This document shows, piece after piece, positions 1,423-40,334 of a stretch of 40,784 nt of DNA. Position numbers and translations under genes: made by a program. A model generated the notes under the pieces. It saw only the letters and a program-made list of their open reading frames with translations, was not told where the DNA came from and made no database searches. Every line of letters begins with the position of its first letter. Positions within the stretch are counted from its first letter, which is position 1. The stretch comes from an uncultured Candidatus Saccharibacteria bacterium (GTDB lineage Bacteria; Patescibacteriota; Doudnabacteria; UBA920; 2-02-FULL-46-11), in assembly GCA_964609765.1 (NCBI GenBank), contig CAZSSD010000001.1, forward strand, positions 1 to 40,784, read 5' to 3'.

Positions 1423-2049
1423 ATGGCCAAGATGATACTGGGTACCAAGCTAAATATGTCGCAGACGTTTGATGCCACTGGCCGGGTTGTGCCGGTGACC
1501 GTAGTTCAAGCTGGGCCCGTAATCGTGGCGCAGGTTAAAAAGAAAGACAGCAAGGATAAGTATGGCGCCGTTCAAGTTGGTTTCGGCAAAAAGAGGAATC
1601 CAAGCAAAGCCATGGCCGGCCACGCTAAGGATTTAGGTGGTTTTAAACATATGCGCGAATTCCGCGTTGCTGGTGATGAGAATTTTGAGGTCGGCCAGGT
1701 ACTTTCTGCCGCGCAGTTCGAGGTGGGTGATTATGTTGATGTGCAGGGAGTTATGAAGGGTCGGGGTTTTACCGGTCCGGTTAAGCGATATAATTTTCGG
1801 GGCGCGCCCAAGACCCATGGACACGACCATCCCCGCGCTGTCGGTTCTATTGGCCAGCGTTTTCCGCAGCATACTCTTAAAGGCCGCCGCATGGCCGGCC
1901 GTATGGGCGGCCATAATATTACAGTTAAGAATTTAGAAGTCATTGAAGTCGATGGCAAGCGCAATTTAATTGCCGTTAAAGGCACGGTGCCTGGCGCCAA
2001 CGGCGGCTTGCTTAAAATAACGCAAAGTCGCAAATCACGTAACGCGTAG
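1423..2049 (+). CDS. rplC: 50S ribosomal protein L3
   Basis: MILGTKLNMSQTFD...GKGFTGPVKRYNF motif plus synteny. Confidence 0.97.
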   Translation: MAKMILGTKLNMSQTFDATGRVVPVTVVQAGPVIVAQVKKKDSKDKYGAVQVGFGKKRNPSKAMAGHAKDLGGFKHMREFRVAGDENFEVGQVLSAAQFEVGDYVDVQGVMKGRGFTGPVKRYNFRGAPKTHGHDHPRAVGSIGQRFPQHTLKGRRMAGRMGGHNITVKNLEVIEVDGKRNLIAVKGTVPGANGGLLKITQSRKSRNA

Positions 2050-2059
2050 CACGTAACAT

Positions 2060-2995: not shown

Positions 2996-3009
2996 AAGGT
3001 TGAAATCTT

Positions 3010-3131
3010 AAATCCTAATTTCTAAATCCTAAATAATGTCCAAATTACAAGTTCAAAATTCAAAACGTTTCAGTAATTCGGATTTTGGATTTGGTGTTTA
3101 TTTGGAATTTAGAGTTTCTAATTTAGGATTT
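3010..3131 (+). repeat. AT-rich long imperfect hairpin element, copy A
   Basis: The terminal arms are aaatcctaa (3010-3018) and ttaggattt (3123-3131), with further internal complementary blocks. It is 122 nt long, the same length as copy B and roughly 80-85% identical to it by eye. Confidence 0.8.
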
Positions 3132-3141
3132 GGAGCGTAAG

Positions 3142-3221
3142 AACCTGCCCGCGGCGGGCAGAACCTTGCGGCGAGAGGTTTCAGCCTTCGGCTGACCTTC
3201 GGAGCCCCAAGGCGCCGTAAG
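3142..3221 (+). repeat. GC-rich structured module, copy 1 (74 nt plus one copy of the flanking CGTAAG)
   Basis: It is flanked by CGTAAG at 3136-3141 and 3216-3221. It contains the perfect hairpin ctgcccgc-g-gcgggcag (3145-3161) and a 9-bp outer stem cttgcggcg/cgccgtaag (3165-3173/3213-3221). Positions 3136-3229 are 94/94 identical to 5967-6060. Confidence 0.85.
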
Positions 3222-3227
3222 CGACAT

Positions 3228-4064
3228 ATGGCTATTAAAGTTTACAAACCAACATCAGCAGGTCGCCGCATCTCTTCGGTTTTGGATACTTCCCACCTAA
3301 CCAAGAAAAAGCCGGAGAAGAGTTTGATTATGCGCAAGAAGAATTCGGCGGGCCGAAACAACACCGGTACCATTACGGTACGCCACCGCGGCGGCGGCGC
3401 GCGCAAACTTATCAGGATAGTTGATAATAAGCGCGAGAAGTTAAATGTGCCGGCCAGAGTAACAGCTTTGGAGTACGATCCCAATCGTTCCGCCAGTTTG
3501 ATGCTTTTAACATATGCCGACGGCGAAAAGCGTTACAGTATTGCTCCGGTCGGCGTTTCCGTAAACCAGACAGTTTTGTCCGGCCAGCGCGTTGATGTTA
3601 GGCCCGGTAATCGCATGGCGCTTACCAATATGCCGCTCGGTACTTTTATCCATGATATAGAAATGGCACCGGGCCGCGGCGGCAAAATTGCGCGCAGCGC
3701 CGGCAGCTACGCTATTTTACAAGCTGTCGAAGCCGGCTTCGCTTTGCTCAAGATGCCATCCGGTGAAATCAGAAAGGTGCCCGCTGGCGGTTTTGCTTCG
3801 ATTGGTCAAGTCAGCAATTCCGACTGGCAGAATGTGCGTTGGGGCAAAGCTGGCCGGACCCGGCACCGCGGTTTTAGACCGACCGTGCTCGGTAAGTCAA
3901 TGAATCCGGTTGATCACCGCCATGGTGGCGGTGAAGGCCATTCGCCGATTGGTTTGAAGCGGCCGGTTACGCCTTGGGGTAAGCCGGCTTTGGGCGTGAA
4001 AACGCGCAATAAGACGAAGGCCTCTAATAAATTTATTGTTAAGCGCAGGCCAAAAGGTAAGTAG
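3228..4064 (+). CDS. rplB: 50S ribosomal protein L2
   Basis: RHRGGGARK...[13 protein letters not shown] motifs plus synteny. Confidence 0.98.
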
Positions 4065-5039: not shown

Positions 5040-5130
5040 AAGAACCGATCTGCAAATTTTTGGAATTCGAGATTTAAAATTTGTTTGGGATTTGGGATTT
5101 GGAGTTTGGAGATTGGAGCGTAAGCGACGT
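5040..5130 (+). repeat. Hairpin-family element, copy C (G/T-rich arm plus conserved tail, no GC module)
   Basis: The sequence tttgggatttgggatttggagtttggagattggagcgtaagcgacgtATG shares its 3' tail ggagcgtaag|cgac with copies A and B. It represents the unoccupied CGTAAG site. Confidence 0.6.
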
Positions 5131-5805
5131 ATGGGTCACAAAATTTCACCAACAAGTTTAAGATTAGACATTACCGAGAACTGGAAATCTCGCTGGTTTA
5201 GTCGTTTGCATGCCCGCGATGTTTTGAAGCAAGATCATCTAATCCGGGAATTTATTAAGGATAATTACAAGAAAGCTAATATTTTGGGGGTAGATATAGA
5301 GCGTACGGCCAATAATCTTCATATTATAATCCGCACGCCTCGTCCCGGTATCTTAATTGGCCGCGGCGGTAGCGGTGTCGAAGAAATGCGCAAAAAAGTA
5401 CAGAAGCTGGCTAAGCTTGCGGTCCCGCCCCGCGTGACTATTCCCACCGAAGACATTAATACTTTGGCCAATTCCGCCCAGGCTGTGGCTTCGAGTATTG
5501 CTGAACAGATGGAAAAGCGTCTGCCCTATCGCCGTGTTATTAAGCAGTCTTTGGACAATCTTATGCAGGGTCGAATCAAGGGCGCCAAAATTGCGGTCGG
5601 GGGCCGGCTCGACGGCGGGGACATTGCGCGCACGGAGTCTTTGCAAAAAGGCAAGCTGCCTTTACACACGCTCCGCGCTAATATAGATTTTGCGCGCGCT
5701 ACCGCTTTTACCACTTATGGTACCGTTGGCGTCAAGGTTTGGGTTTACAAGGGTGATGTATTGGCAAAGTCGTCTAACGAAAAAACGTCTCTGCCGTCGC
5801 GATAG
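5131..5805 (+). CDS. rpsC: 30S ribosomal protein S3
   Basis: MGHKISPTSLRL starts at the ATG at 5131. The ORF-track start at 5092 is a TTG inside the repeat element. KH and S3-C motifs (GILIGRGGSGVEE, GAKIAVGGRL) are present. Confidence 0.95.
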   Translation: MGHKISPTSLRLDITENWKSRWFSRLHARDVLKQDHLIREFIKDNYKKANILGVDIERTANNLHIIIRTPRPGILIGRGGSGVEEMRKKVQKLAKLAVPPRVTIPTEDINTLANSAQAVASSIAEQMEKRLPYRRVIKQSLDNLMQGRIKGAKIAVGGRLDGGDIARTESLQKGKLPLHTLRANIDFARATAFTTYGTVGVKVWVYKGDVLAKSSNEKTSLPSR

Positions 5806-5840
5806 TGAGAAGGGTAAAGGTTGTCAATCAATTAAATTCT

Positions 5841-5962
5841 AAATCCTAATTTTTAAATCCTAAACAATGTTAAAATTCCAATTTCAAAATTTAAAACTTT
5901 TCCGAAATTCAGATTTTGGATTTGGAATTTATTTAGGTTTTAGAGTTTGTAATTTAGGATTT
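5841..5962 (+). repeat. AT-rich long imperfect hairpin element, copy B
   Basis: The terminal arms are aaatcctaa (5841-5849) and ttaggattt (5954-5962). It is 122 nt and a paralogue of copy A. Confidence 0.8.
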
Positions 5963-5972
5963 GGAACGTAAG

Positions 5973-6052
5973 AACCTGCCCGCGGCGGGCAGAACCTTGC
6001 GGCGAGAGGTTTCAGCCTTCGGCTGACCTTCGGAGCCCCAAGGCGCCGTAAG
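5973..6052 (+). repeat. GC-rich structured module, copy 2
   Basis: It is flanked by CGTAAG at 5967-5972 and 6047-6052. Positions 5967-6060 are identical to 3136-3229. Confidence 0.85.
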
Positions 6053-6060
6053 CGACATAT

Positions 6061-6468
6061 ATGTTAATTCCCAAAAAGGTCAAACATCGAAAACATCATA
6101 GAGGCCATACCCGCGGCAAGGCTACCAGCGGTACTGAAATCGCTTTTGGTTCGTATGGTTTAAAAGCCATGGAGAATGGCTGGCTGTCTAGTCGACAAAT
6201 AGAAGCCGCTCGGCGCGCCATGACCCGCAGTATTCAGAGAGGCGGTAAAATTTGGATTCGCGTTTTTCCGGATAAGCCCATTACTTTTCATGGTAATGAA
6301 TCAGTGATGGGTGGCGGCAAGGGCAGTGTTGAATATTTTGTCGCCCCGGTTTTAAAGGGCCGTGTTTTGTTCGAAATGGAAGGCGTGGCTGTGGAAGCTG
6401 CGGCCGAAGCCATGCGCTTGGCTGCCCATAAACTCCCCCTCAAGACTAAATTTTTAAGTAATAAGTAG
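6061..6468 (+). CDS. rplP: 50S ribosomal protein L16
   Basis: [15 protein letters not shown]...[12 protein letters not shown]...[14 protein letters not shown] motif. Confidence 0.98.
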
Positions 6469-6471
6469 AAT

Positions 6472-6699
6472 ATGGCCAAAGCTTTGGACGAATTAAAAGA
6501 ATTGCAGAATTTGAATGGCGCGCAATTGCAGGCTAAACTTCGCGAGCTGCGCGAAAAATTGCGCGACCTGTCTTTCCGTACCCGGGCTGACGAAATTCGT
6601 GATATGCATGAGTTTGGGAATACCAGAAAAAGCATTGCCAGAGTGTTGACTATGCTCAATAAGAAAAGTAAGATTAACCCGCCCTCGCGGAAAGCCTAG
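6472..6699 (+). CDS. rpmC: 50S ribosomal protein L29
   Basis: LKELQNLNGAQLQAKLRELREKL pattern. The position between rplP and rpsQ fits. Confidence 0.9.
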   Translation: MAKALDELKELQNLNGAQLQAKLRELREKLRDLSFRTRADEIRDMHEFGNTRKSIARVLTMLNKKSKINPPSRKA

Positions 6700-7109: not shown

Positions 7110-7481
7110 ATGCTGCAGATCAGAAGTTATCTAAAAGTTGCTGACAACACTGGCGCGAAAGAAATCGCCGTTTTCTCCGTATCTGGCCGCAACAAGAGAA
7201 GGTATGCCCGTTTAGGCGATGTTGTGCGCGCTTCAGTTAAAGCCGCTACGCCCAATGGACAGGTTAAAAAGGGTGATTCGGTCCACGCAGTCATTGTCCG
7301 AACCCGCAAAGAAGTTAGGCGCAAGGACGGTTCTTATATCCGTTTTGATGAAAATGCCGCGGTTTTGGTCAATGCTCAAACTAAAGAGCCCCGGGGCACG
7401 CGTATTTTTGGCCCCATCCCCCGAGAAGTAAGAGACGCTGGTTTTGCCAAGATCGCGTCATTGGCCCCGGAGGTTATCTAA
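7110..7481 (+). CDS. rplN: 50S ribosomal protein L14
   Basis: [18 protein letters not shown]...AVIVRTRKE...[10 protein letters not shown] motif. Confidence 0.98.
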
Positions 7482-7483
7482 AT

Positions 7484-7801
7484 ATGTCTAATCCTAATTT
7501 TAAAAAAGGCGATCAAGTCAAAATTTTATCCGGCAAGGACAAAGGCAAGACCGGTAAAATTTTGGAAGTGGCTAGCGGGGATGGCCGAGTGATGGTTGAG
7601 GGAGTGGGGCTGGTTATTAGGCATAAGCGTCCGCGCAGCAGCCGCGAAAAGGGCCAGAAGCTCACTAAACCCACTTTTATTGATCCGTCAAAGGTAATGT
7701 TGGTTTGTACGAACTGCGGTAAACCCGCGCGAGTTTCAATTAAAATTTCCGAGACGGGCGAGAAAAGTCGTATTTGCAAGAACTGTGAACGGGCAATTTA
7801 A
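7484..7801 (+). CDS. rplX: 50S ribosomal protein L24
   Basis: KKGDQVKILSGKDKGKTGKILEV (KOW motif) plus synteny. Confidence 0.95.
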   Translation: MSNPNFKKGDQVKILSGKDKGKTGKILEVASGDGRVMVEGVGLVIRHKRPRSSREKGQKLTKPTFIDPSKVMLVCTNCGKPARVSIKISETGEKSRICKNCERAI

Positions 7802-7810
7802 ACATAAGCT

Positions 7811-8377
7811 ATGGCTAAGGTAAATAAGGTAAATCAGACAATCAGCCTAAAAGAGATTTTTCGAAAAGAAACCGTTCCTGCTTTAAAAAAGGAACTTGGT
7901 TTATTAAATGACTTAGCGGTGCCGCGCATCGATAAAGTTGTTATTAATGTCGGGGTTGGGCGCAGTACGCGTGATGAAAAGTACATTAATGCTGTTTTTG
8001 GCGATATTACCAAAATCACCGGGCAAAGGCCGGTTAAGACCGTGGCGCGTAAGGCGATTGCAGGGTTTAAGATCCGCGAAGGCAATGTGGTGGGGGTTAA
8101 GGTCACGCTCCGCGGAAATCGCATGTATGATTTTTTAAACAAATTGATTTATGTAGCGCTGCCCCGCGTTAGAGATTTTCGAGGCATTTCCGGCACCGGT
8201 TTCGATCGGGAAGGTAACTATAGTTTGGGTTTGCGCGAGCACATTGTTTTTCCGGAAGTTTCGCCAGATGCGGTTGAATATACTTTCCCCCTGGAAATTA
8301 CGGTTAGGACCACGGCTAAAAACCGCGAGGATAGCTACAAATTATTAAAGTCAATGCATTTCCCCTTTAAGGATTAA
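7811..8377 (+). CDS. rplE: 50S ribosomal protein L5
   Basis: [13 protein letters not shown]...[25 protein letters not shown] motif. Confidence 0.97.
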
Positions 8378-8605: not shown

Positions 8606-8998
8606 ATGACGGATCCAATTTCAGACATGTTAACCAGAATCAGGAACTCTGTTTCCGTAGCGAAGACTACGGTGGTTATGCCTTACAGTAAATTTAAGCA
8701 TAACCTCGCACGGCTTTTGGTTACCGAGGGCTGGCTGACGGAGGTTTTTGTACGCGAGCAGGCTGGTAAGAAAATGTTGGGTATGGGTATTAAGTACGGT
8801 CCCAATCGCCGCGCCGTTATTTCTGGCTTAAAGAGGGTGAGTAAGCCGGGGCAAAGAATTTATGCCAATCATAAGGAAATTCCGCGCGCCCGAAGCGGTG
8901 TTGGTGTTACGATTGTTTCAACTTCAAAAGGTCTGATGACGGATAGGCAAGCGTATCGTGAAAAATTAGGCGGCGAAGTAATCGCGCAAATTTGGTAA
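8606..8998 (+). CDS. rpsH: 30S ribosomal protein S8
   Basis: MTDPISDMLTRIRN starts at the ATG at 8606. The ORF-track start at 8588 is a TTG in the spacer. Confidence 0.95.
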   Translation: MTDPISDMLTRIRNSVSVAKTTVVMPYSKFKHNLARLLVTEGWLTEVFVREQAGKKMLGMGIKYGPNRRAVISGLKRVSKPGQRIYANHKEIPRARSGVGVTIVSTSKGLMTDRQAYREKLGGEVIAQIW

Positions 8999-10997: not shown

Positions 10998-12272
10998 ATG
11001 AATCTAGGTAAAATCTGGAAACTTAAGGATCTGCGCAATAAGGTACTAATTATTATTGGTATTCTTGCGCTTAGCCGTGTTTTGGCGCATGTGCCAATTC
11101 CGGCCTTGAATCCGGCCGATATACGCGAGTTCTTTTCCGGCAACCAGATTTTTGGCCTGTTAAACATTTTTTCCGGCGGCGGTTTAAGCAACTTGAGTAT
11201 CGCCATGCTTGGTGTCGGCCCATACATCACTGCCAGTATTATTATTCAGCTTTTAACCGTGATTGTGCCGAGTCTTCAAGAATTGGCGCGTGAGGGCGGG
11301 GAAGCGGGCCGCGCCAAAATCAACCGTTACACCATGTTTTTAACGGTACCTTTGACGATTGTTCAATCTTATGCCACCATCACTCTTCTTTCGCGCAGCG
11401 GCGGCATCGCCAATTTTCCGGTTTTGTCGCCGTACCAGTGGGTGGTCAGTATCGCTGCCATTACCGCAGCCACTTTGCTTTTGGTGTGGCTGGGAGAACT
11501 AATTACCAATCACGGCATTGGTAATGGCGTTTCACTCATCATTTTTGCCGGTATCGTGTCCGCCTTGCCGCAATTTGTGCAGCAATTTATTTCCACTTAT
11601 GACCCTACGCAATTAACCAAGGCCGTGGCTTTCGTGGTCATAGCGTTGGTGGTTGTTTCTGGTATTGTCTTTACTAATGAAGCTCAAAGAAATATCCCGG
11701 TTTCTTACGCGAAAAGAGTAAGGGGCAATAAACTCTACGGCGGTGTTTCCACGCATTTGCCGCTGCGTCTTTTGCAGGCGGGCGTGATTCCAATCATCTT
11801 TGCCATTTCCATTTTGCTTTTCCCGCCCCTGGTTGCCAATTTCTTTACGAATGCCCGAACCGAATGGGTCGCTGATTTTGCCCAGAGCATTAATCGAATT
11901 TTTCAGGACCAGACTTTTTACGCCGCCTTGTATTTTATCCTGGTGGTTATCTTTACTTATTTTTACACAGCCGTTGTTTTCAATCCGGACGAGATTGCCG
12001 AGAATGTGCAAAAGGCCGGCGGCTTTGTGCCGGGCTTGCGTCCGGGCCGGCAGACTGCCGATTATTTGTATAAAATTTTGAACCGCATCACCACCGCCGG
12101 CGCGGTGATCTTGGGCGTAATTGCCATACTGCCATTTTTGATGCAGGGCGCTTTTGACACGCAAGTACTTACGATCGGCGGCACCAGTTTGTTAATCGTG
12201 GTGGCCGTCGCCGTGGAGACCATGAAGCAAATAGAGGCGCAGTTGGTGATGAGGGAATATGAGGGACTGTAA
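10998..12272 (+). CDS. secY: Preprotein translocase subunit SecY
   Basis: The product is 424 aa and polytopic. Motifs: GVGPYITASIIIQLL, WLGELITNHGIGNGVSLIIFAGI, GGTSLLIVV. Confidence 0.97.
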   Translation: MNLGKIWKLKDLRNKVLIIIGILALSRVLAHVPIPALNPADIREFFSGNQIFGLLNIFSGGGLSNLSIAMLGVGPYITASIIIQLLTVIVPSLQELAREGGEAGRAKINRYTMFLTVPLTIVQSYATITLLSRSGGIANFPVLSPYQWVVSIAAITAATLLLVWLGELITNHGIGNGVSLIIFAGIVSALPQFVQQFISTYDPTQLTKAVAFVVIALVVVSGIVFTNEAQRNIPVSYAKRVRGNKLYGGVSTHLPLRLLQAGVIPIIFAISILLFPPLVANFFTNARTEWVADFAQSINRIFQDQTFYAALYFILVVIFTYFYTAVVFNPDEIAENVQKAGGFVPGLRPGRQTADYLYKILNRITTAGAVILGVIAILPFLMQGAFDTQVLTIGGTSLLIVVAVAVETMKQIEAQLVMREYEGL

Positions 12273-12445
12273 CTTGTGAGGGGGACACTACGCTAACGCT
12301 TCGTTCCCCCTTCCCAACTCGCTTCGCTCGTTCCCTCCCCCTATATAAGGATTGCTCGGCCGGGCATAGCCCGAGCCTCGCAAGCGGGCACTTTTGTTTA
12401 GAGTGGCAAAGCTAGATCAAGCCTTATTCTTAGCCTTTTTTTAAT

Positions 12446-12476
12446 ACCGCCTTGCTTACGCTTAGGCGGTTTTTGT
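12446..12476 (+). terminator. Intrinsic terminator downstream of secY
   Basis: The 7-bp stem accgcct/aggcggt (12446-12452/12464-12470) has an 11-nt loop and is followed by ttttgtt. Confidence 0.6.
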
Positions 12477-12575
12477 TGGTATGTGCCATATTTTTTAGCG
12501 AATAGACCTCGGTGCACCGCATGCCCAACTGCCAGAGAGACGAAATAAACAGCCGAAAGGATGGTTTTTGTTAAT

Positions 12576-12604
12576 TTGACATGAGACCAATGTAAGAATA
12601 ATAT
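12576..12604 (+). promoter_or_regulatory. Near-consensus sigma70 promoter of the island ORF
   Basis: TTGACA (12576-12581), a 17-nt spacer, then TAATAT (12599-12604). It lies 76 nt upstream of the ATG at 12681. Confidence 0.55.
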
Positions 12605-12620
12605 TTATTGTTGATAACAA

Positions 12621-12665
12621 AGGCACCTGAACTTCGCTTAAAGGAGCGAATTCAGGCCTTTTCTT
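12621..12665 (+). promoter_or_regulatory. Terminator-like hairpin inside the 5' leader of the island ORF
   Basis: The arms aggcacctgaacttcgct (12621-12638) and agcgaattcaggcct (12645-12659) form 16 bp with two 1-nt bulges and a 6-nt loop. A ttttctt run follows, then the SD GAGGAGG (12666-12672) 8 nt before the ATG. Confidence 0.55.
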
Positions 12666-12680
12666 GAGGAGGACAATTCC

Positions 12681-12968
12681 ATGCATGATTCGACGACCAT
12701 CGCGGACACGGAACTGACCCATGTGGTGATCACCGGCCACGTACCGAATCGCGGCCATTCAAGACGCATCCTGGTCGAGTTCCGAGATGTGCCGACGGAG
12801 TGGCTGCGACCTCACAGTCCTGGCGCCAAAGTTCCAGCCGATGTCACGACACAGGAGATTCGGAAGCTGCTCGATGCGTTCACAGGCGCAGGCATGTCCG
12901 TGGCGTCTCTGGTGGCGTTAGCCCGAGCCCTGCCCGAACCGGTGCTCAGAGCGGCGCAAGGGTCGTGA
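12681..12968 (+). CDS. Hypothetical 95-aa protein of foreign (high-GC) composition
   Basis: An ATG with a strong SD, and its own promoter. By hand count the ORF has 179/288 G+C and 65/96 G/C-ending codons, against visibly AT-richer neighbours. I recognise no motif. The C-terminal half is Ala/Leu-rich and looks helical. Confidence 0.5.
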   Translation: MHDSTTIADTELTHVVITGHVPNRGHSRRILVEFRDVPTEWLRPHSPGAKVPADVTTQEIRKLLDAFTGAGMSVASLVALARALPEPVLRAAQGS

Positions 12969-12995
12969 CATCGCTGTTCGCCCGGACGGGCGCCT

Positions 12996-13026
12996 GGTGG
13001 TACGGCGAAGCAGTACGCCGGCCACC
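12996..13026 (+). terminator. GC-rich hairpin downstream of the island ORF
   Basis: ggtgg-ta-cggcg / cgccg-g-ccacc (12996-13007 / 13016-13026) with an 8-nt loop. No T-run follows, so its function as a terminator is uncertain. Confidence 0.3.
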
Positions 13027-13095
13027 GCCCTCCTAAGTTTGTTACGTGCTACGTGTTACGCGTAATGTGGCTGTAGTAGATTTAGGAGGGTTTTG

Positions 13096-13104
13096 TGTTA
13101 TAAT
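13096..13104 (+). promoter_or_regulatory. Extended -10 element upstream of adk
   Basis: TGtTATAAT at 13096-13104, 9 nt before the ATG at 13114. There is no convincing -35. Confidence 0.35.
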
Positions 13105-13113
13105 ACGGTTACT

Positions 13114-13725
13114 ATGCGAAAGGATATCAAGAATAATAAAAAGCCAAATAATGACTTGCCGGTCGTTATTTTTATGGGCATTCAAGGCTCTGGCAAAGGC
13201 ACCCAAGCTAAATTGTTGGCCGAAAAATATGGTTTTGCCCATGTCGAAACCGGCCAACTCTGGCGCAATGCCGCTAAGCGTAAAGATAATATGGGTAAAA
13301 TAGCCAGACGTATTTTATCTGCGGGTAAGCTTGCACCGAGCTGGGAAACTCAAAATTTAGTTAACCAAGCTTTAGTGGCCGCCAAAAAACAACCCATCGT
13401 TATCGATGGTTCGCCTCGCCAAGTTGTCGAGGCTAAAGTTTTAGAAAAAAATCTTGCTAAAATAAGCAGGGATATTTCTGTAATCATGCTCATCGGCATA
13501 ACCGACAAAGAAGGTCTTAAGCGGCTTCTTTTGCGCGGCCGAGACGATGATACGCCCGAGTTGATTCGCCGAAGGTTTGCCTGGTCCAAAGATAAGATTG
13601 CCCGCGTGCTTAAGTATTTGTCCAAGCGGCACCTCACCATAAAAATCAATGGCGAGCAGTCGGTTGCTAAAGTTCATAAAGATATCCTAAAAGAATTGCA
13701 AAAGCGCGGAATTATTAAACGGTAG
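13114..13725 (+). CDS. adk: Adenylate kinase
   Basis: P-loop FMGIQGSGKGTQAKLLAEKYGF and the LID region RGRDDDTPELIRRR. The start is either the ATG at 13114 or the in-frame TTG at 13093. Confidence 0.93.
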   Translation: MRKDIKNNKKPNNDLPVVIFMGIQGSGKGTQAKLLAEKYGFAHVETGQLWRNAAKRKDNMGKIARRILSAGKLAPSWETQNLVNQALVAAKKQPIVIDGSPRQVVEAKVLEKNLAKISRDISVIMLIGITDKEGLKRLLLRGRDDDTPELIRRRFAWSKDKIARVLKYLSKRHLTIKINGEQSVAKVHKDILKELQKRGIIKR

Positions 13726-15806: not shown

Positions 15807-16191
15807 AATTTTAGCTCTCGATATTGGCGAACAAAGAACAGGCTTTGCCATCACTGATGAGGGGCAAATTATCGCTCAAGCCTTACCGTTTACGGCGCCC
15901 CTTGCTAATTTGAATAAGGGAATAGCTGAAATACAAAAGGATTATGGATTTAATAAAATAGTAATAGGCCTGCCCAAGACCATGTCTGGTTTAGAGGGGC
16001 CGCAGGCAAGCAAAGTGCGAGAGGTCGGCCAATCCTTAGCCAAAGAATTTAATTGCCCGATAGAATATTTTGACGAAAGATTAACAACAAAACAAGCGAG
16101 TAATTTGATGGCCAAAAGTGGTAATATCCCGTTAGATTCTTTGGCCGCGCAACAAATATTGGAACAATACCTTCAGTCGCGTAACACATAA
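15799..16191 (+). CDS. ruvX: YqgF/RuvX-type putative pre-16S rRNA nuclease / Holliday junction resolvase-like protein
   Basis: ILALDIGEQRTGFAITD...IVIGLPKTMSG...DERLTT motifs. The start overlaps the stop of the upstream gene by 8 nt. Confidence 0.9.
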   Translation: MSRILALDIGEQRTGFAITDEGQIIAQALPFTAPLANLNKGIAEIQKDYGFNKIVIGLPKTMSGLEGPQASKVREVGQSLAKEFNCPIEYFDERLTTKQASNLMAKSGNIPLDSLAAQQILEQYLQSRNT

Positions 16192-16247
16192 CACGTAACA
16201 TGAAACAGAAAGGAAAATAAAAAAAACACGTTTGCGCATCACGTTTT

Positions 16248-16275
16248 GATACGTGATACGTGATACGTGATACGT
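16248..16275 (+). repeat. Tandem heptamer (GATACGT) x4
   Basis: There are four perfect head-to-tail copies at 16248-16254, 16255-16261, 16262-16268 and 16269-16275. They overlap the only in-frame GTG start (16260) of the downstream gene. Confidence 0.95.
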
Positions 16276-18649: not shown

Positions 18650-19306
18650 ATGAATATCATAGTTCCCGCCATATTAACGGATAGCCTTACTGACTTTACC
18701 GAGAAACTGGCCATGCTCGAAAGTTTTCCAAAGGTGACGCGTGTGCATATCGACTTTGCCGATCATCGCTTTGTGTCAAATGGGACTATTTTACCGGCCG
18801 TTCTGCCAAGCTTGCCAATTCAGTATGAATTTACCGCCCACTTAATGGTTTATGATCCGGAAAGTTATCTGCTCGATTTGCAAAGAGTTGGTTTTGAAAT
18901 AGCTTCCTTCCATTATGAAACTGCGGCCGGACTTTCGGAAGTTGAATATTTATCTAAAAAAATCAGGGCGCTGGGCCTAAAGCCCCAGTTAGCCATCAAT
19001 CCGGAAACGCCCGTCGAAGTTGTGATACCGCTCTTGAGGGAAATTGACCGTTTGCACATTATGGCAGTTGATCCCGGTTTTCAGGGCAGTCCTTATCATC
19101 ATGAAGAAGAGAAAATTACATTTTTGCGCAAACACGGTTTTTATGGCACGATAGTAGTAGATGGCGGTATAGACAAAAATAAGGTTCGCGCCCTTTTGGC
19201 GGCTGGTGCCGACCAATTAGTGGTCGGTTCGGCCATAATGCGAGCGCGTAATCCAAGAAAAGTTTATCTAGATTTACTCGAGGAGGCGGGAGAGGGTGTG
19301 CAATGA
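18650..19306 (+). CDS. rpe: Ribulose-phosphate 3-epimerase-like TIM-barrel protein
   Basis: HIDFAD..F, AHLMV and VVDGGI match the Rpe metal and phosphate motifs but are divergent. The pentose-phosphate context supports the call. Confidence 0.72.
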   Translation: MNIIVPAILTDSLTDFTEKLAMLESFPKVTRVHIDFADHRFVSNGTILPAVLPSLPIQYEFTAHLMVYDPESYLLDLQRVGFEIASFHYETAAGLSEVEYLSKKIRALGLKPQLAINPETPVEVVIPLLREIDRLHIMAVDPGFQGSPYHHEEEKITFLRKHGFYGTIVVDGGIDKNKVRALLAAGADQLVVGSAIMRARNPRKVYLDLLEEAGEGVQ

Positions 19307-20160
19307 TTTTAAAACCAAAGCCAGAATTAGAAATTAAAGCAATCGCCAACGAAATCCGCAAAGATATCATTAAGATGTTGCTTGCGGCAGGTTCAGGCCA
19401 CTCGGCCGGGCCGTTGGGCATGGCCGATATTTTTGCCGCGCTTTATTTTCAGGTTTTAAAACATGACCCTAAAAATCCCCGCTGGGCCGAGCGGGACAAA
19501 TTATTTTTATCTAACGGACACATTTGTCCGGTTTGGTATGCCACGCTTGCCCAGGCCGGCTATTTTCCCAGGGAAGAGCTGAAAACTTTGCGCAAACTTG
19601 GCACGCGTTTGCACGGCCATCCGCACAACTTGGCTTTGCCCGGCCTGGAAAATAGCGGCGGGCCGTTGGGCCAGGGCCTGTCACAAGCCATCGGTGCTGC
19701 TCTAGCGGCGCGGATGGACGGCAAAAAACAAAGGATCTATTGCTTGCTGTCAGACGGTGAACACGATGAGGGCCAAACTTGGGAGGCGGTCATGTTTGCG
19801 GGCAAATATCGTTTAAGTAATCTGACCGCGATTGTGGATCGCAACAACATTCAAATTGAAGGTTTTACGGAAAATGTTATGCCGCTCGAGCCGTTTGCCG
19901 AAAAGTACAAAGCTTTTAACTGGCATGTTTTAGAAATCGACGGCCACAACATAGAAGCGATCATCGATGCCTGCAATGAGGCTAAGGCTATTTATGAAAA
20001 ACCCACCGTCATAATAGCCCACACCATACCCGGCAAGGGTATCGATTTTATGGAAAATGACTATCATTGGCATGGCGCGCCGCCTAATAGCGAGCAAGCA
20101 AAGCTGGCCTTGAAGGAGCTGCGCACTTTGGGCGGCCAGATTAAGAGTGAGCATGAGTAA
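19303..20160 (+). CDS. Transketolase, N-terminal (TPP/pyrophosphate-binding) subunit
   Basis: GSGHSAGPLGMADIFAALYF, LSNGH, GPLGQGLSQAIG, LSDGEHDEGQTWEA motifs. At 285 aa it is half-length. Confidence 0.93.
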   Translation: MILKPKPELEIKAIANEIRKDIIKMLLAAGSGHSAGPLGMADIFAALYFQVLKHDPKNPRWAERDKLFLSNGHICPVWYATLAQAGYFPREELKTLRKLGTRLHGHPHNLALPGLENSGGPLGQGLSQAIGAALAARMDGKKQRIYCLLSDGEHDEGQTWEAVMFAGKYRLSNLTAIVDRNNIQIEGFTENVMPLEPFAEKYKAFNWHVLEIDGHNIEAIIDACNEAKAIYEKPTVIIAHTIPGKGIDFMENDYHWHGAPPNSEQAKLALKELRTLGGQIKSEHE

Positions 20161-20186
20161 TTGATATTGATAATTAATACAAGCTT

Positions 20187-21923
20187 ATGTCCTTTTTATT
20201 TTTTGTAGTTGCCATTATTTTGCTAATTTGGATCGTCAGGTTAAGCGGTCGCGTTGACCAACTTGAGAGGCGGATTTTTAGTGGCGGCCCAGTGCCCGGG
20301 ATACCGGTGGCGCCGGCCACGCCGCCACCGCCACCGGTGACGAGTTTGGCTGGCACAGCCTCGCCCATACCAATGCCGCAAATGCAGCCAAAATCTGATT
20401 TTGATTTTGCGGGTTGGCTGACCAAAGTGGGTGCTCTTGCCCTTATTTTGGGAGTCGGTTTTTTCTTAAAGTACGCCATTGATCAAGGTTGGATAGGCAT
20501 TGCCGGCCGTGTTGTTATCGGCCTTTTGATCGGCGCTTTTTTGGTAATTTTGTCTGAACTGTGGCGGGATAAATATAAAATGTATGCCCAAGCCCTTGGC
20601 GGCGGCGGTTTAGCTATCCTTTACTTCACGGTTTTTGCCGCCTCTCAATTTTACGCCTTGGTGCCGAGTATGGTGGGGGCAGGTTTAGCCTTGGCCGTTT
20701 CCGCCCTGGCTGTTTTCTTGGCCCATAAACGGGCATCGCTTGTTTTTGCCGCTTTAGCCGTGATCGGCGGTTATTTGTCGCCCATTATGTTTGAGGTTAA
20801 TCAGGCCAGTGCCATGACCGCATTGATCTTCCTGACCGTATTGAATTTGGCGGTGATCACAACACTTTTAAAAAAATATTGGCTGGGTCTGGTTTTTCTG
20901 GCTTTTGCCGGATCAGCCATCAATTATATTATCTGGGCTGTTGAAAACACCGGCGCTTTTGCGGTCATGCCCGCGCTTACCTTCCTGCTTATTTCCGCGG
21001 CCATTTTTATGCTTTTTGCGACGGCTTTTTATCGCCAAGAAGCAGATAATGCAGCCGCTGATTCAGGTGACGCGGCGGCCGGCGCTTATTATGCGTTGGT
21101 TGGGTTTTTCCACTTGATTGCCGTTTATGAGGCATTAAGCCCCGGCCAGGAAGGCTATCTTTTGCCCGCCGGACTGGTTATTGCCGCTTTAAGCTTTTTA
21201 GCCTACGCCCTATTTAATAACCCAAAGCTGAAGATCGCGAGCTTTGCCCTGTCTTTGGTGGGCAGCGCTTCTGTTTTTGCCGCTTTGGCCTGGCAATTTG
21301 AGGGCAAAATACTCGACCTCTTTATTTTGGCTCTGGCGCTGGTTTTAGCTCTTCTCGGTTTTCTGTTCAGACGACAGGAGTTGAGGTTGTGGGGACTGGC
21401 CGCTCTAGTTTTGGCTTTGTTAATGGTCTTATTTGAAGACCGTGCCGGCACCAGCTTGTTCCTATTTAATTCCAAATTTGGCCTGATTGCCCTCATTATC
21501 GTGATTTTCGGGATTATGGAGTGGCTTTACCGGAACCAACCCACGCCGGATTTTGAAAAAGAAATGCCGGCGGCCGTGCGGATCGCCTGGGCGGGTTTGA
21601 TTTGGTATGGTATCTCTTCGGAAATTGGCGAGTATTTCAGCAGTTCGGTCAATGTGCGTAATTTATTGTTGAGTTTCTGGTGGCTGGCTTATGCTACCTT
21701 GCTTTTAATTTACGGTTCGATTAAGCTCGATCTTATTCTGCGAAGGACGGGTTTGGTGTTGCTCGCGTTTACGGTTTTAAAGGTGTTTTTGTACGACATT
21801 CAGACCCTGGATACTGTTTATAAGACCATTGCCTTTGTCGTGCTGGGCGTGATTTTGTTGACAATGGCTTTTACTTATCAAAAAAACAAGGAAAAAATTA
21901 AACATTTCTGGCAGGGCAATTAA
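20187..21923 (+). CDS. Polytopic membrane protein (DUF2339-like architecture)
   Basis: The product is 578 aa. It has an N-terminal TM helix, a short LERRI helix, a Pro-rich linker (PATPPPPPV), and then more than 12 hydrophobic helices. The family assignment is from memory of this architecture only. Confidence 0.6.
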   Translation: MSFLFFVVAIILLIWIVRLSGRVDQLERRIFSGGPVPGIPVAPATPPPPPVTSLAGTASPIPMPQMQPKSDFDFAGWLTKVGALALILGVGFFLKYAIDQGWIGIAGRVVIGLLIGAFLVILSELWRDKYKMYAQALGGGGLAILYFTVFAASQFYALVPSMVGAGLALAVSALAVFLAHKRASLVFAALAVIGGYLSPIMFEVNQASAMTALIFLTVLNLAVITTLLKKYWLGLVFLAFAGSAINYIIWAVENTGAFAVMPALTFLLISAAIFMLFATAFYRQEADNAAADSGDAAAGAYYALVGFFHLIAVYEALSPGQEGYLLPAGLVIAALSFLAYALFNNPKLKIASFALSLVGSASVFAALAWQFEGKILDLFILALALVLALLGFLFRRQELRLWGLAALVLALLMVLFEDRAGTSLFLFNSKFGLIALIIVIFGIMEWLYRNQPTPDFEKEMPAAVRIAWAGLIWYGISSEIGEYFSSSVNVRNLLLSFWWLAYATLLLIYGSIKLDLILRRTGLVLLAFTVLKVFLYDIQTLDTVYKTIAFVVLGVILLTMAFTYQKNKEKIKHFWQGN

Positions 21924-21928
21924 CGGGC

Positions 21929-22915
21929 ATGGCGAATAAAGAAAAAAAAGGATCCAAAAATAACACTGGGGCAGGTTTAGAAGAAGTGCCTACGCGCAAC
22001 GGTTACGGCGAAGGGCTTTTAGAGCTGGGTGAGACTGACAAAGACGTAGTTGTGCTTTCGGCCGATCTGGCCGAATCGACACGAGCCTACGCGTTTGGTA
22101 GTAAATATCCGGAAAGGTTTTTTGAAGTAGGCGTGGCCGAACAAAATATGATGGGTATCGCGGCCGGTTTGGCGCTTTCTGGTAAAATTCCCTTTGTCTC
22201 AAGCTATGCCACTTTTAGTCCCGGCCGCAATTGGGATCAGTTGCGCGTTTCGGTTTGCTACAGCCTTGCCAACGTTAAAATTGCCGGTAGCCATAGCGGT
22301 CTTTCGGTGGGGCCCGACGGCGCTACCCATCAGGCCTTAGAAGATATTGCCATTACCCGCGTGCTGCCTAATTTAACCGTGGTCGTGCCTTGCGATTACC
22401 ATGAGGCCAGGAAGTGCACCGTGGCGGCCGCTTCTCACAAAGGACCTCTTTATTTCCGCTTGGGTCGCGAAAAAACGCCGGTCATCACGGACGCCGATGC
22501 GCCTTTTGAAATAGGCAAAGCCGTCGTTTTTAGGGAAGGCGCGGATGTCACGATTATTGGCGCGGGCCCGTTATTATATGAGGCGCTGCTCGCGGCCGAG
22601 GCGCTCGCCCAAAAGGGCATCGAGGCGGCTGTGATCAATTGCCACACTATCAAACCGATTGATAAAAAAACAATCGTCGCCCACGCCAAAAAAAGCGGCG
22701 CGGTTGTGACCGTCGAGGAGCACCAGATTTACGGGGGCTTGGGCAGCGCCGTGGCCGAGGTGCTTGCGCAAGAATATCCGGTGCCTATGGAAATGGTGGC
22801 TGTCCCTGACCAGTTCGGCGAATCTGGCCAACCGCATGAGCTGCTCGAAAAGTTTCAATTGCTTTCACCGGACATTGCCAGAGCCGCGGAAAGGGCCATT
22901 GCCAGAAAACAGTAA
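21929..22915 (+). CDS. Transketolase, C-terminal (pyrimidine-binding) subunit
   Basis: FFEVGVAEQNMMGIAAGLA, GSHSGLSVGPDGATHQALEDIA, VVTVEEH motifs. Confidence 0.93.
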   Translation: MANKEKKGSKNNTGAGLEEVPTRNGYGEGLLELGETDKDVVVLSADLAESTRAYAFGSKYPERFFEVGVAEQNMMGIAAGLALSGKIPFVSSYATFSPGRNWDQLRVSVCYSLANVKIAGSHSGLSVGPDGATHQALEDIAITRVLPNLTVVVPCDYHEARKCTVAAASHKGPLYFRLGREKTPVITDADAPFEIGKAVVFREGADVTIIGAGPLLYEALLAAEALAQKGIEAAVINCHTIKPIDKKTIVAHAKKSGAVVTVEEHQIYGGLGSAVAEVLAQEYPVPMEMVAVPDQFGESGQPHELLEKFQLLSPDIARAAERAIARKQ

Positions 22916-40144: not shown

Positions 40145-40160
40145 ATATAAAATTGAATAT

Positions 40161-40334
40161 TTCCTTCAGGGCGGGGTGAGCCGAAAGGCAAGTCCCCACC
40201 GGCGGTGACAATCCGCGAGCGAGCCAAAAGGCGAGCAGGATCTGGTGGAATTCCAGAATCGACGGTATAGTCCGGATGAAAGAAGGAAACGCTTATGAGC
40301 GTTTTTCGCCCTGCTTAAAATTAAGCAGGTTTTT
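40161..40334 (+). promoter_or_regulatory. FMN riboswitch (RFN element) with terminator-type expression platform
   Basis: P1 is ttccttc/gaaggaa (40161-40167/40282-40288). The conserved cores are agggcggggtga...tccccaccggcggt, atccgcgagc and gatctggtggaattccagaatcgacggtatagtccggatg. Two hairpin plus T-run units follow (40287-40306 and 40310-40334). Confidence 0.9.

Follow-up and report, generated by a model that had tools for sequence, protein, structure and literature searches.

A high-GC, Shine-Dalgarno-led small gene, probably acquired horizontally, in a variable secY-adk slot of Candidatus Doudnabacteria

A phage moron, such as gene 15 of HK97, is an extra gene between otherwise adjacent genes, with a deviant GC content and with its own promoter and terminator (PMC3594210). 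In this study we analysed a stretch of 40,784 nt of contig CAZSSD010000001.1 (hereafter the window), in which a small cassette around a 95-codon open reading frame (ORF), here called ORF95, separates secY from adk within the ribosomal superoperon. The window is a genome fragment of the Candidate Phyla Radiation (CPR), and its SecY shares 85% identity with the SecY of Candidatus Doudnabacteria RIFCSPHIGHO2_02_FULL_46_11 (L001). As with a phage moron, the cassette separates two genes that are neighbours in related genomes: the secY-adk gap is 104 or 165 nt in distant Doudnabacteria (SecY about 65% identical) and 12-254 nt in 79 other genomes, compared with 841 nt here. One distant Doudnabacteria genome has clpP and two adk genes at the junction. 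Also like a moron, the cassette gene has a GC content of 0.62 against 0.483 for the host genes. From sequence motifs and hairpin energies, a promoter and a terminator of its own are predicted, in a layout that recurs in the homologous units. Unlike a moron, it is not associated with a phage or prophage and has no relatives in PHROGs or IMG/VR; its flanks are ribosomal-protein genes, secY, adk and map, and the slot it occupies is a hotspot of a CPR chromosome.

Genomic islets at hotspots resemble the locus in their constant core flanks, in content that is unrelated from one relative to the next and in assemblies that break at the site. The locus differs from such islets in the absence of an integrase, transposase, tRNA or tmRNA target nearby, in the size of its units (0.5-3 kb), in its position inside the ribosomal superoperon and in its cargo, which is high in GC and led by Shine-Dalgarno (SD) sequences in a largely SD-less host. 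A Pfam scan of the genes between secY and 34.5 kb, a stretch of at least 20 kb, detected no integrase, transposase or phage genes, and no tRNA or tmRNA target was found. The 40 kb of flanks carry ribosomal, secretion, glycolysis and pentose-phosphate genes.

Integron cassettes and clusters of attC sites lacking integron-integrases (CALIN arrays) share with the locus the small co-oriented ORFs with an imperfect inverted-repeat hairpin after each, four of which stand in a row in L001. Unlike integron cassettes, the units have their own promoters, intI and attI are absent, and the inverted-repeat element occurs in both orientations. We rejected an integron cassette, as a regular-expression scan for attC cores (RYYYAAC...GTTRRRY) on both strands of 12250-13130 found a single half-site and no pair, the cassette has its own TTGACA-17-TAATAT promoter, and no recombinase domain was found by Pfam between secY and 34.5 kb. 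A type II toxin-antitoxin system was also rejected: the cassette in the window has a single gene, and ORF95, its homologue P0002 and the ORF that precedes the latter in contig L081 (L081 ORF1) are without hits in Pfam, NCBIfam and PADLOC. We class the cassette as a moron-like accessory unit in a chromosomal hotspot inside a CPR ribosomal superoperon.

The gene secY (Pfam: PF00344) spans 10998-12272 and adk (Pfam: PF00406) starts with the ATG at 13114; the secY stop, the adk start, the spacer length and the position of ORF95 (12681-12968) were given correctly in the initial annotation of this DNA. Its hand counts for ORF95, 179 of 288 G+C (62%) and 65 of 96 G/C-ending codons, are exact, and its 49 of 68 G+C for the next 68 nt becomes 48 of 68 on recounting. 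It had also proposed a foreign composition, and sliding-window GC and tetranucleotide statistics mark the stretch as outlying: 12681-13036 has a GC content of 0.638, the highest among all 356-nt windows of the 40.8 kb (z 3.6), and the largest tetranucleotide distance in the window. The 45 host genes of the window have a GC content of 0.483 +/- 0.029 with a maximum of 0.537. Compared with these genes, ORF95 has z scores of 4.8 for GC, 3.9 for GC at third codon positions (GC3) and -3.0 for codon usage.

There are sharp changes in composition at about 12690 and 13036. On the left, the change coincides with the ATG of ORF95, and 12478-12680 is AT-rich; the borders first proposed (12478 and 13043) are not supported. 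At the right end, a long hairpin has its 5' arm (13028-13045) directly next to the foreign part and the matching 3' arm (13073-13090) beside the adk promoter. Because the two arms pair across a host-like loop, the functional unit reaches about 13099 and a misjoin is unlikely. The cassette unit extends from the promoter, or from the terminator preceding it, through the inverted-repeat terminator and T-tract at about 13099. The hexamer TTTGTT, earlier considered as a border or target-site duplication, is present at both places, but it is no border evidence, because there are 24 copies in the window and both of the copies in question are part of terminators, the left one lying in a T-tract and the right one in the inverted-repeat stem.

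We searched exhaustively with HMMER through 1.84 billion cluster representatives, drawn from about 15 billion proteins, and found P0002 as the only homologue of ORF95 (99 aa, 44% identity, E 6.6e-15, residues 15-89). In a word-indexed search, single-sequence and profile queries against 5.8 billion proteins both yielded nothing beyond ORF95 and P0002, and an exact-sequence look-up of ORF95 returned no record. The initial impression that the protein belongs to no recognisable family is borne out: Pfam, PHROGs, PADLOC and NCBIfam gave zero hits for ORF95, P0002, the split halves or any ORF of the sister islands, and scans of IMG/VR with the family profile, the 223-aa protein of L001 and L081 ORF1 found no relatives.

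Aligned by codon, ORF95 and P0002 agree at 0.51 of the first, 0.76 of the second and 0.33 of the third codon positions, and different codons are used for 20 of the 36 residues identical between the two proteins. There is no gap in the conserved core (residues 15-89), and the sole gap is a whole-codon one of 4 residues near the C-terminus. Both genes are of matching size (95 and 99 aa) and have an identical GAGGAGGA-7 nt-ATG start region. The codon-position identities and the different codons at identical residues are characteristic of purifying selection on a protein, and on this codon evidence we regard ORF95 as a real protein gene and not as an RNA or a decaying fragment. It had been asked whether the ORF is a frameshifted piece of a longer gene, with a second open frame at 12800-13036. 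The second frame is not conserved, and since the homologue is of the same size, ORF95 is full length and the other frame is incidental.

A profile search against the PDB gave a non-significant match to three chains of eS28, an OB-fold ribosomal protein (E 0.2-0.7, residues 9-55), which we note as no more than a lead; Pfam gave no S28e hit, and a sequence search of the PDB found nothing for the C-terminal half. A sigma-r4/LuxR-like helix-turn-helix, seen by eye in the C-terminal helices, was dropped because it is unsupported by the PDB sequence searches. As a low-confidence guess, the product could be a small cytoplasmic binding or regulatory protein with an N-terminal beta-hairpin and two C-terminal helices, of the conflict/accessory class that is the usual content of variable slots like this one.

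The junction itself was initially described as one of the most conserved of bacterial genomes. In other lineages secY and adk are indeed nearly contiguous, but comparison of the spacers in sister genomes shows that within this clade the junction is hypervariable. In close relatives (genomes with SecY 78-88% identical to the window) the slot content is mutually unrelated and ranges from 0.3 to 3.3 kb (Table 1). The assemblies of the larger slots are reproducible, with 100% identity between L001 and L182 over 5.1 kb and 99.84% between L167 and L168 over 10 kb, each from independent assemblies. At least two of the four ORFs in the L001 slot have TTGACG promoters. Except for an element directly after secY and the inverted-repeat stem, the window insert has no similarity to the L001 and L167 inserts, and ORF95 and P0002 are the sole related pair among the cargo ORFs. 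The 36-codon high-GC stub in the L167 slot could not be shown to be a remnant of ORF95, as the local alignment is no better than that of shuffled sequences (146/500, 39/500). Scanning metagenomes with SecY yielded no relative more than 57% identical. In other CPR lineages a membrane-protein gene is sometimes present at the junction, without a GC anomaly.

The adk genes were also compared (window 13114-13725; L167 6785-7390 on the minus strand and 7452-8039; L176 7054-8333). They are 39-50% identical where ribosomal proteins, SecY and Map are 57-88% identical, indicating faster evolution or turnover than in their neighbours. There are two adk copies in L167, one of them inverted, and adk is also duplicated in L176.

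Besides their GC content, the cargo genes stand out by their translation signals. An SD-like 5-mer is found upstream of 4 of the 45 host genes in the window, 1 of 12 in L081, 0 of 10 in L167 and 1 of 17 in L169 (6 of 84 overall). By comparison, six of the seven high-GC islet ORFs checked have an SD (ORF95, both L081 genes and three L001 ORFs), with the motifs GAGGAGG, GGGAGG, AAGGAG, GGGGAGG and GGAGGAA. The seventh, the 98-aa ORF of L001, has an uncertain start codon; its test was negative at a mis-set start, and by eye CGGAGGAACA lies upstream. The two ORFs of host composition in the L167 slot have no SD. High GC and SD-led initiation thus co-occur in the cargo, and the SD would be a second mark of foreign origin. 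Several host genes, among them adk and, in L081, secA, start a few nt past an extended -10 box, suggesting leaderless or SD-independent initiation.

The cassette is not unique, as a homologous cassette with the P0002 gene exists at another locus. It lies in L081 between an agmatinase-family gene and secA, where P0002 is the second gene of a two-ORF islet with a GC content of 0.58-0.62 in a contig of about 0.48. The two ORFs are co-oriented, 99 aa each and 63 nt apart, with one promoter and an SD each. The P0002 cassette is found on 6 metagenome contigs from at least five samples, and its DNA is 99.8-100% identical among them. Upstream of the islet there is a terminator with a TTGACA promoter abutting it, and downstream a long hairpin with the inverted repeat CCCTCCCAA...TTGGGAGGG and a T-tract after it, which is the same element as 13027-13099 of the window. 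One position of the stem, T/A in the window and C/G in L081, appears to co-vary. A third copy of the inverted repeat is present in the secY-adk slot of L167, in the opposite orientation and 86% identical to the L081 copy over 81 nt. Two 17-mers from this element had only matches of chance length (17-19 nt).

The L081 islet has a T-tract direct repeat, GGWTTTTAGTTG, at both sides. A 12-nt direct repeat, GG(A/T)TTTTAGTTG (L081 9557-9568 and 10434-10445), brackets the 877-nt high-GC islet and is formed by the T-tracts of the two terminators. It could be an insertion scar or mere similarity of terminators.

Taken together, we propose that ORF95 is probably a horizontally acquired accessory gene, which forms a self-sufficient, moron-like transcription unit in a lineage-specific variable slot of the Candidatus Doudnabacteria chromosome. 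The secY transcript would stop at the terminator at 12446-12477, and the promoter at 12576-12604 would start a monocistronic mRNA of roughly 480 nt. This mRNA would have a structured 70-nt leader and a canonical SD, unlike the almost SD-less host genes, and would encode a soluble 10-kDa protein which, judging by the codon positions, is under purifying selection. Transcription would terminate at the 65-nt inverted-repeat hairpin and its U-tract, and adk would be re-promoted by its own extended -10, so that the insert would be insulated from the ribosomal superoperon. The donor would have been a higher-GC lineage with SD-led translation, or a mobile element of such a lineage.

Several observations weigh against a horizontal acquisition of this kind. 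The phage collections (IMG/VR, PHROGs) and the defence databases yielded no homologue, nor was one found in a high-GC organism, and the AlphaFold2 model, built from one or two sequences, has a pLDDT of 42-43, too low for matches to its fold to mean anything. Only one contig carries the window cassette itself, whose promoter, terminators and start site are predicted from the sequence. Composition and motifs are host-like across promoter and leader (12478-12680) and in the terminator loop, and the expression kit may have been assembled from host modules instead of imported. ORF95 and P0002 have diverged to 44-47% identity, yet both are GC-rich; GC retained at this distance could reflect long residence in the clade under constraint and not a recent import. 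ORF95 might accordingly be a native, vertically inherited, clade-specific gene that was relocated in the genome, with its GC content and SD due to constraint from amino acids, mRNA structure or a special translation regime. The contig with the homologue comes from the same sample set as the close relatives, the divergence of the pair resembles that of the fast-evolving Adk (39-50% identity), high GC is kept in both copies in spite of it, and the modules around the gene (terminator, promoter and heptad array) resemble those of the host. However, L001, L167, L169, L170 and L174 lack the gene at this junction, just two clusters exist among about 15 billion proteins, and GC3 and codon usage deviate as well, beyond the first and second codon positions. 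Moreover, the L001 slot is filled by unrelated high-GC, SD-led ORFs, which points to a shared foreign pool, and we give a native origin a small but real chance. It also seems unlikely that the locus belongs to an undescribed CPR cassette-exchange system, in which terminators between genes would serve as capture sites for small units of a promoter, an SD-led high-GC ORF and a GC hairpin. Inverted-repeat/heptad elements, found in both orientations and carrying T-tract direct repeats, would bound these units, which would need no linked recombinase to pass from one locus or genome to another; their genes would possibly be imported from a high-GC partner organism of the episymbiont.

Variable slots often hold toxin-antitoxin or effector-immunity modules. 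ORF95 could be the surviving half of such a two-gene module, its solo copy being an orphan antitoxin or immunity (anti-addiction) protein, and the L081 islet does have two equally small co-oriented ORFs behind one promoter, of which the window has only the second. But neither protein matches a toxin-antitoxin, PADLOC, Pfam or NCBIfam family, the 63 nt and the separate SDs mean that the two genes are not translationally coupled, and no remnant of ORF1 was found in the window, which makes this quite improbable. That the high-GC stretch is no functional gene, but a structured RNA or what decay or a frameshift has left of a longer gene, might be argued from the second open frame at 12800-13036, the strongly folding 3' part and the lack of a recognised family. 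We consider this very improbable in view of the protein-type conservation with position 3 least conserved, the gap-free core, a homologue with the same length and SD spacing, and the absence of Rfam hits even at E up to 10. An assembly chimera, in which high-GC DNA of another organism was joined into a Doudnabacteria contig, would agree with the presence of the window cassette on one contig only and with the sharp composition switches at about 12690 and 13036. It would hardly account for the pairing of the hairpin arms 13028-13045 and 13073-13090, which is not expected from a misjoin, nor for the homologous cassette of the same architecture on 6 contigs and the sister islands reproduced by independent assemblies, and we think there is next to no chance of it.

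The features of the cassette and of its slot, and the content of the slot in close relatives, are collected in Table 1.

Table 1. Features of the secY-adk spacer in the window and content of the secY-adk slot in close relatives. Promoters and terminators are predictions.
Feature	Position or size	Strand	Remarks
ORF95	12681-12968	+	Protein-coding gene: 95 aa, 10.2 kDa, soluble, near-neutral (pI 6.97), orphan two-member family
Conserved structured element right after secY stop	12274-12403	+	Slot context, not cargo
Terminator-like hairpin and T-tract, closing the secY transcript	12446-12477	+	-13.7 kcal/mol, z -2.9; intrinsic type
85-nt AT-rich segment between GGTTTTTGTT copies	12468-12572	+	No significant fold (z 0.28)
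Sigma-70-type promoter TTGACA-17-TAATAT	12576-12604	+	10/12 positions match; predicted
Leader hairpin, then UCUU	12619-12661	+	-23.3 kcal/mol, z -3.1; equalled by 1/200 shuffles
Shine-Dalgarno GAGGAGG, 8 nt upstream of ATG	12666-12672	+	Same GAGGAGGA-7 nt-ATG in homologue
Two GC-rich hairpins of the 3' untranslated region	12979-12992, 12996-13026	+	12969-13100: minimum free energy -63.8 kcal/mol, z -4.4
Long inverted-repeat hairpin CCCTCCTAAG...TTAGGAGGG, then TTTTGTGTT	13027-13099	+	-37.4 kcal/mol, z -6.1; predicted cassette terminator
Heptad array GTTACGT GCTACGT GTTACGC GTAATGT	13041-13068	+	In terminator hairpin loop; host-like junction motif
Extended -10 promoter TGTTATAAT for adk	13096-13104	+	Unique in window; precedes adk in L169 too
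L001/L182 slot	2.8 kb		Four unrelated high-GC ORFs (223, 78, 98, 82 aa), GC hairpin after each
L167/L168 slot	3.3 kb		Promoter, 36-codon high-GC stub, inverted-repeat element, 77-aa and 534-aa ORFs of host composition, inverted adk paralogue
L169 slot	300 nt		ORF-free; keeps TGTTATAAT adk promoter and ACGT-rich stretch
L170 slot			PaaX_M-like gene, minus strand
L174 slot			Membrane-protein ORF
L172, L173			Contig ends 46 and 122 nt past secY

The expression kit of the initial annotation, consisting of promoter, leader hairpin, SD and GC hairpin, is present in full as sequence features. The terminator-like element after secY is conserved in L167, L001 and L081, with a GTTGAC(A/G) promoter 0-11 nt downstream of it in L081 and L167. 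By eye, a TTGAC(A/G) -35 and a TA-rich -10 are also found upstream of the cargo in L081, L167 and two L001 cassettes. The GGTTTTTGTT motif occurs only twice in the window (12468 and 12563), and the 85 nt flanked by its copies are absent from L081 and L167. The leader hairpin could be a 5'-end stabiliser or an attenuator. The adk ATG is 9 nt past TGTTATAAT, and with the start site this would imply, the adk mRNA would be near-leaderless.

The structured element directly after the secY stop is also found at L167 4186-4325 and L001 7285-7402. Over 140 aligned positions it shares 88.6% identity with L167, and it has blocks in common with L001. Its consensus fold has invariant closing stems (UUGUG/CGCAA and AGGGGGA/UCCCCCU) and one hairpin with 3 compensatory pairs in L001, where a variable hairpin is inserted as well. 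It may be an element of the 3' untranslated region or a small RNA; Rfam has nothing relevant at the gathering threshold for the whole window, or at E up to 10 for 12200-13200.

Heptad arrays (GYTACGT/GATACGT) are present at three other gene junctions of the window, 2039-2057 (-), 16181-16199 (-) and 16248-16273 (+), with 0 expected by chance. The initial view that the ACGT-rich motif is host-like, with host sequence resuming near 13037, thus agrees with the recurrence of the array at these junctions. Similar arrays are found in the loops of the L081 and L167 inverted-repeat elements and upstream of adk in L169, a near-empty site. They could be a binding array for a regulator.

Further observations were made in the slots of the relatives. 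In L001, a 33-nt palindromic operator-like repeat (ATCACA..TTCACGGCCGTGAAC..TGTGA; 7707-7739 and 8753-8785) is located 50-65 nt 5' of two cassette promoters. A hairpin-plus-SD module, GCGCTTTAGGCGCGGAGGAACA, is repeated before two other L001 ORFs and is also found before the L174 ORF. The 534-aa protein of L167, the closest relative (5084-6688), is a secreted protein with repeated Cys-rich units (C..C...C......C), a low-complexity C-terminus and no recorded Pfam hit.

Elsewhere in the window, a 227-nt direct repeat (3003-3229 and 5834-6060, 91% identical) is found in the ribosomal-protein gene cluster, with both copies ending at gene starts. It consists of an AT-rich long hairpin and a GC-rich structured tail, and matches no Rfam family at the gathering score. 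The N- and C-terminal halves of transketolase are encoded by separate genes (19303-22915), with a gene for a 578-aa DUF2339 membrane protein between them. An FMN riboswitch is located at 40158-40291 (Rfam: RF00050, 96 bits, E 4e-21).

In the small, streamlined genomes of the CPR (Patescibacteria), the majority of accessory genes are uncharacterised. Our claim is a modest one, given an orphan family of two members. The ribosomal superoperon of one Doudnabacteria clade tolerates a hypervariable slot, and high GC and SD-led initiation independently mark the origin of the cargo in this slot. The two marks together are a simple sequence signature with which recently imported genes can be found in such genomes, and they raise the question of how SD-led mRNAs are translated in hosts that barely use SD sequences. 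The slots also yield a defined set of tiny orphan proteins, ORF95 and P0002 first among them, in which roles in symbiosis or conflict can be sought.

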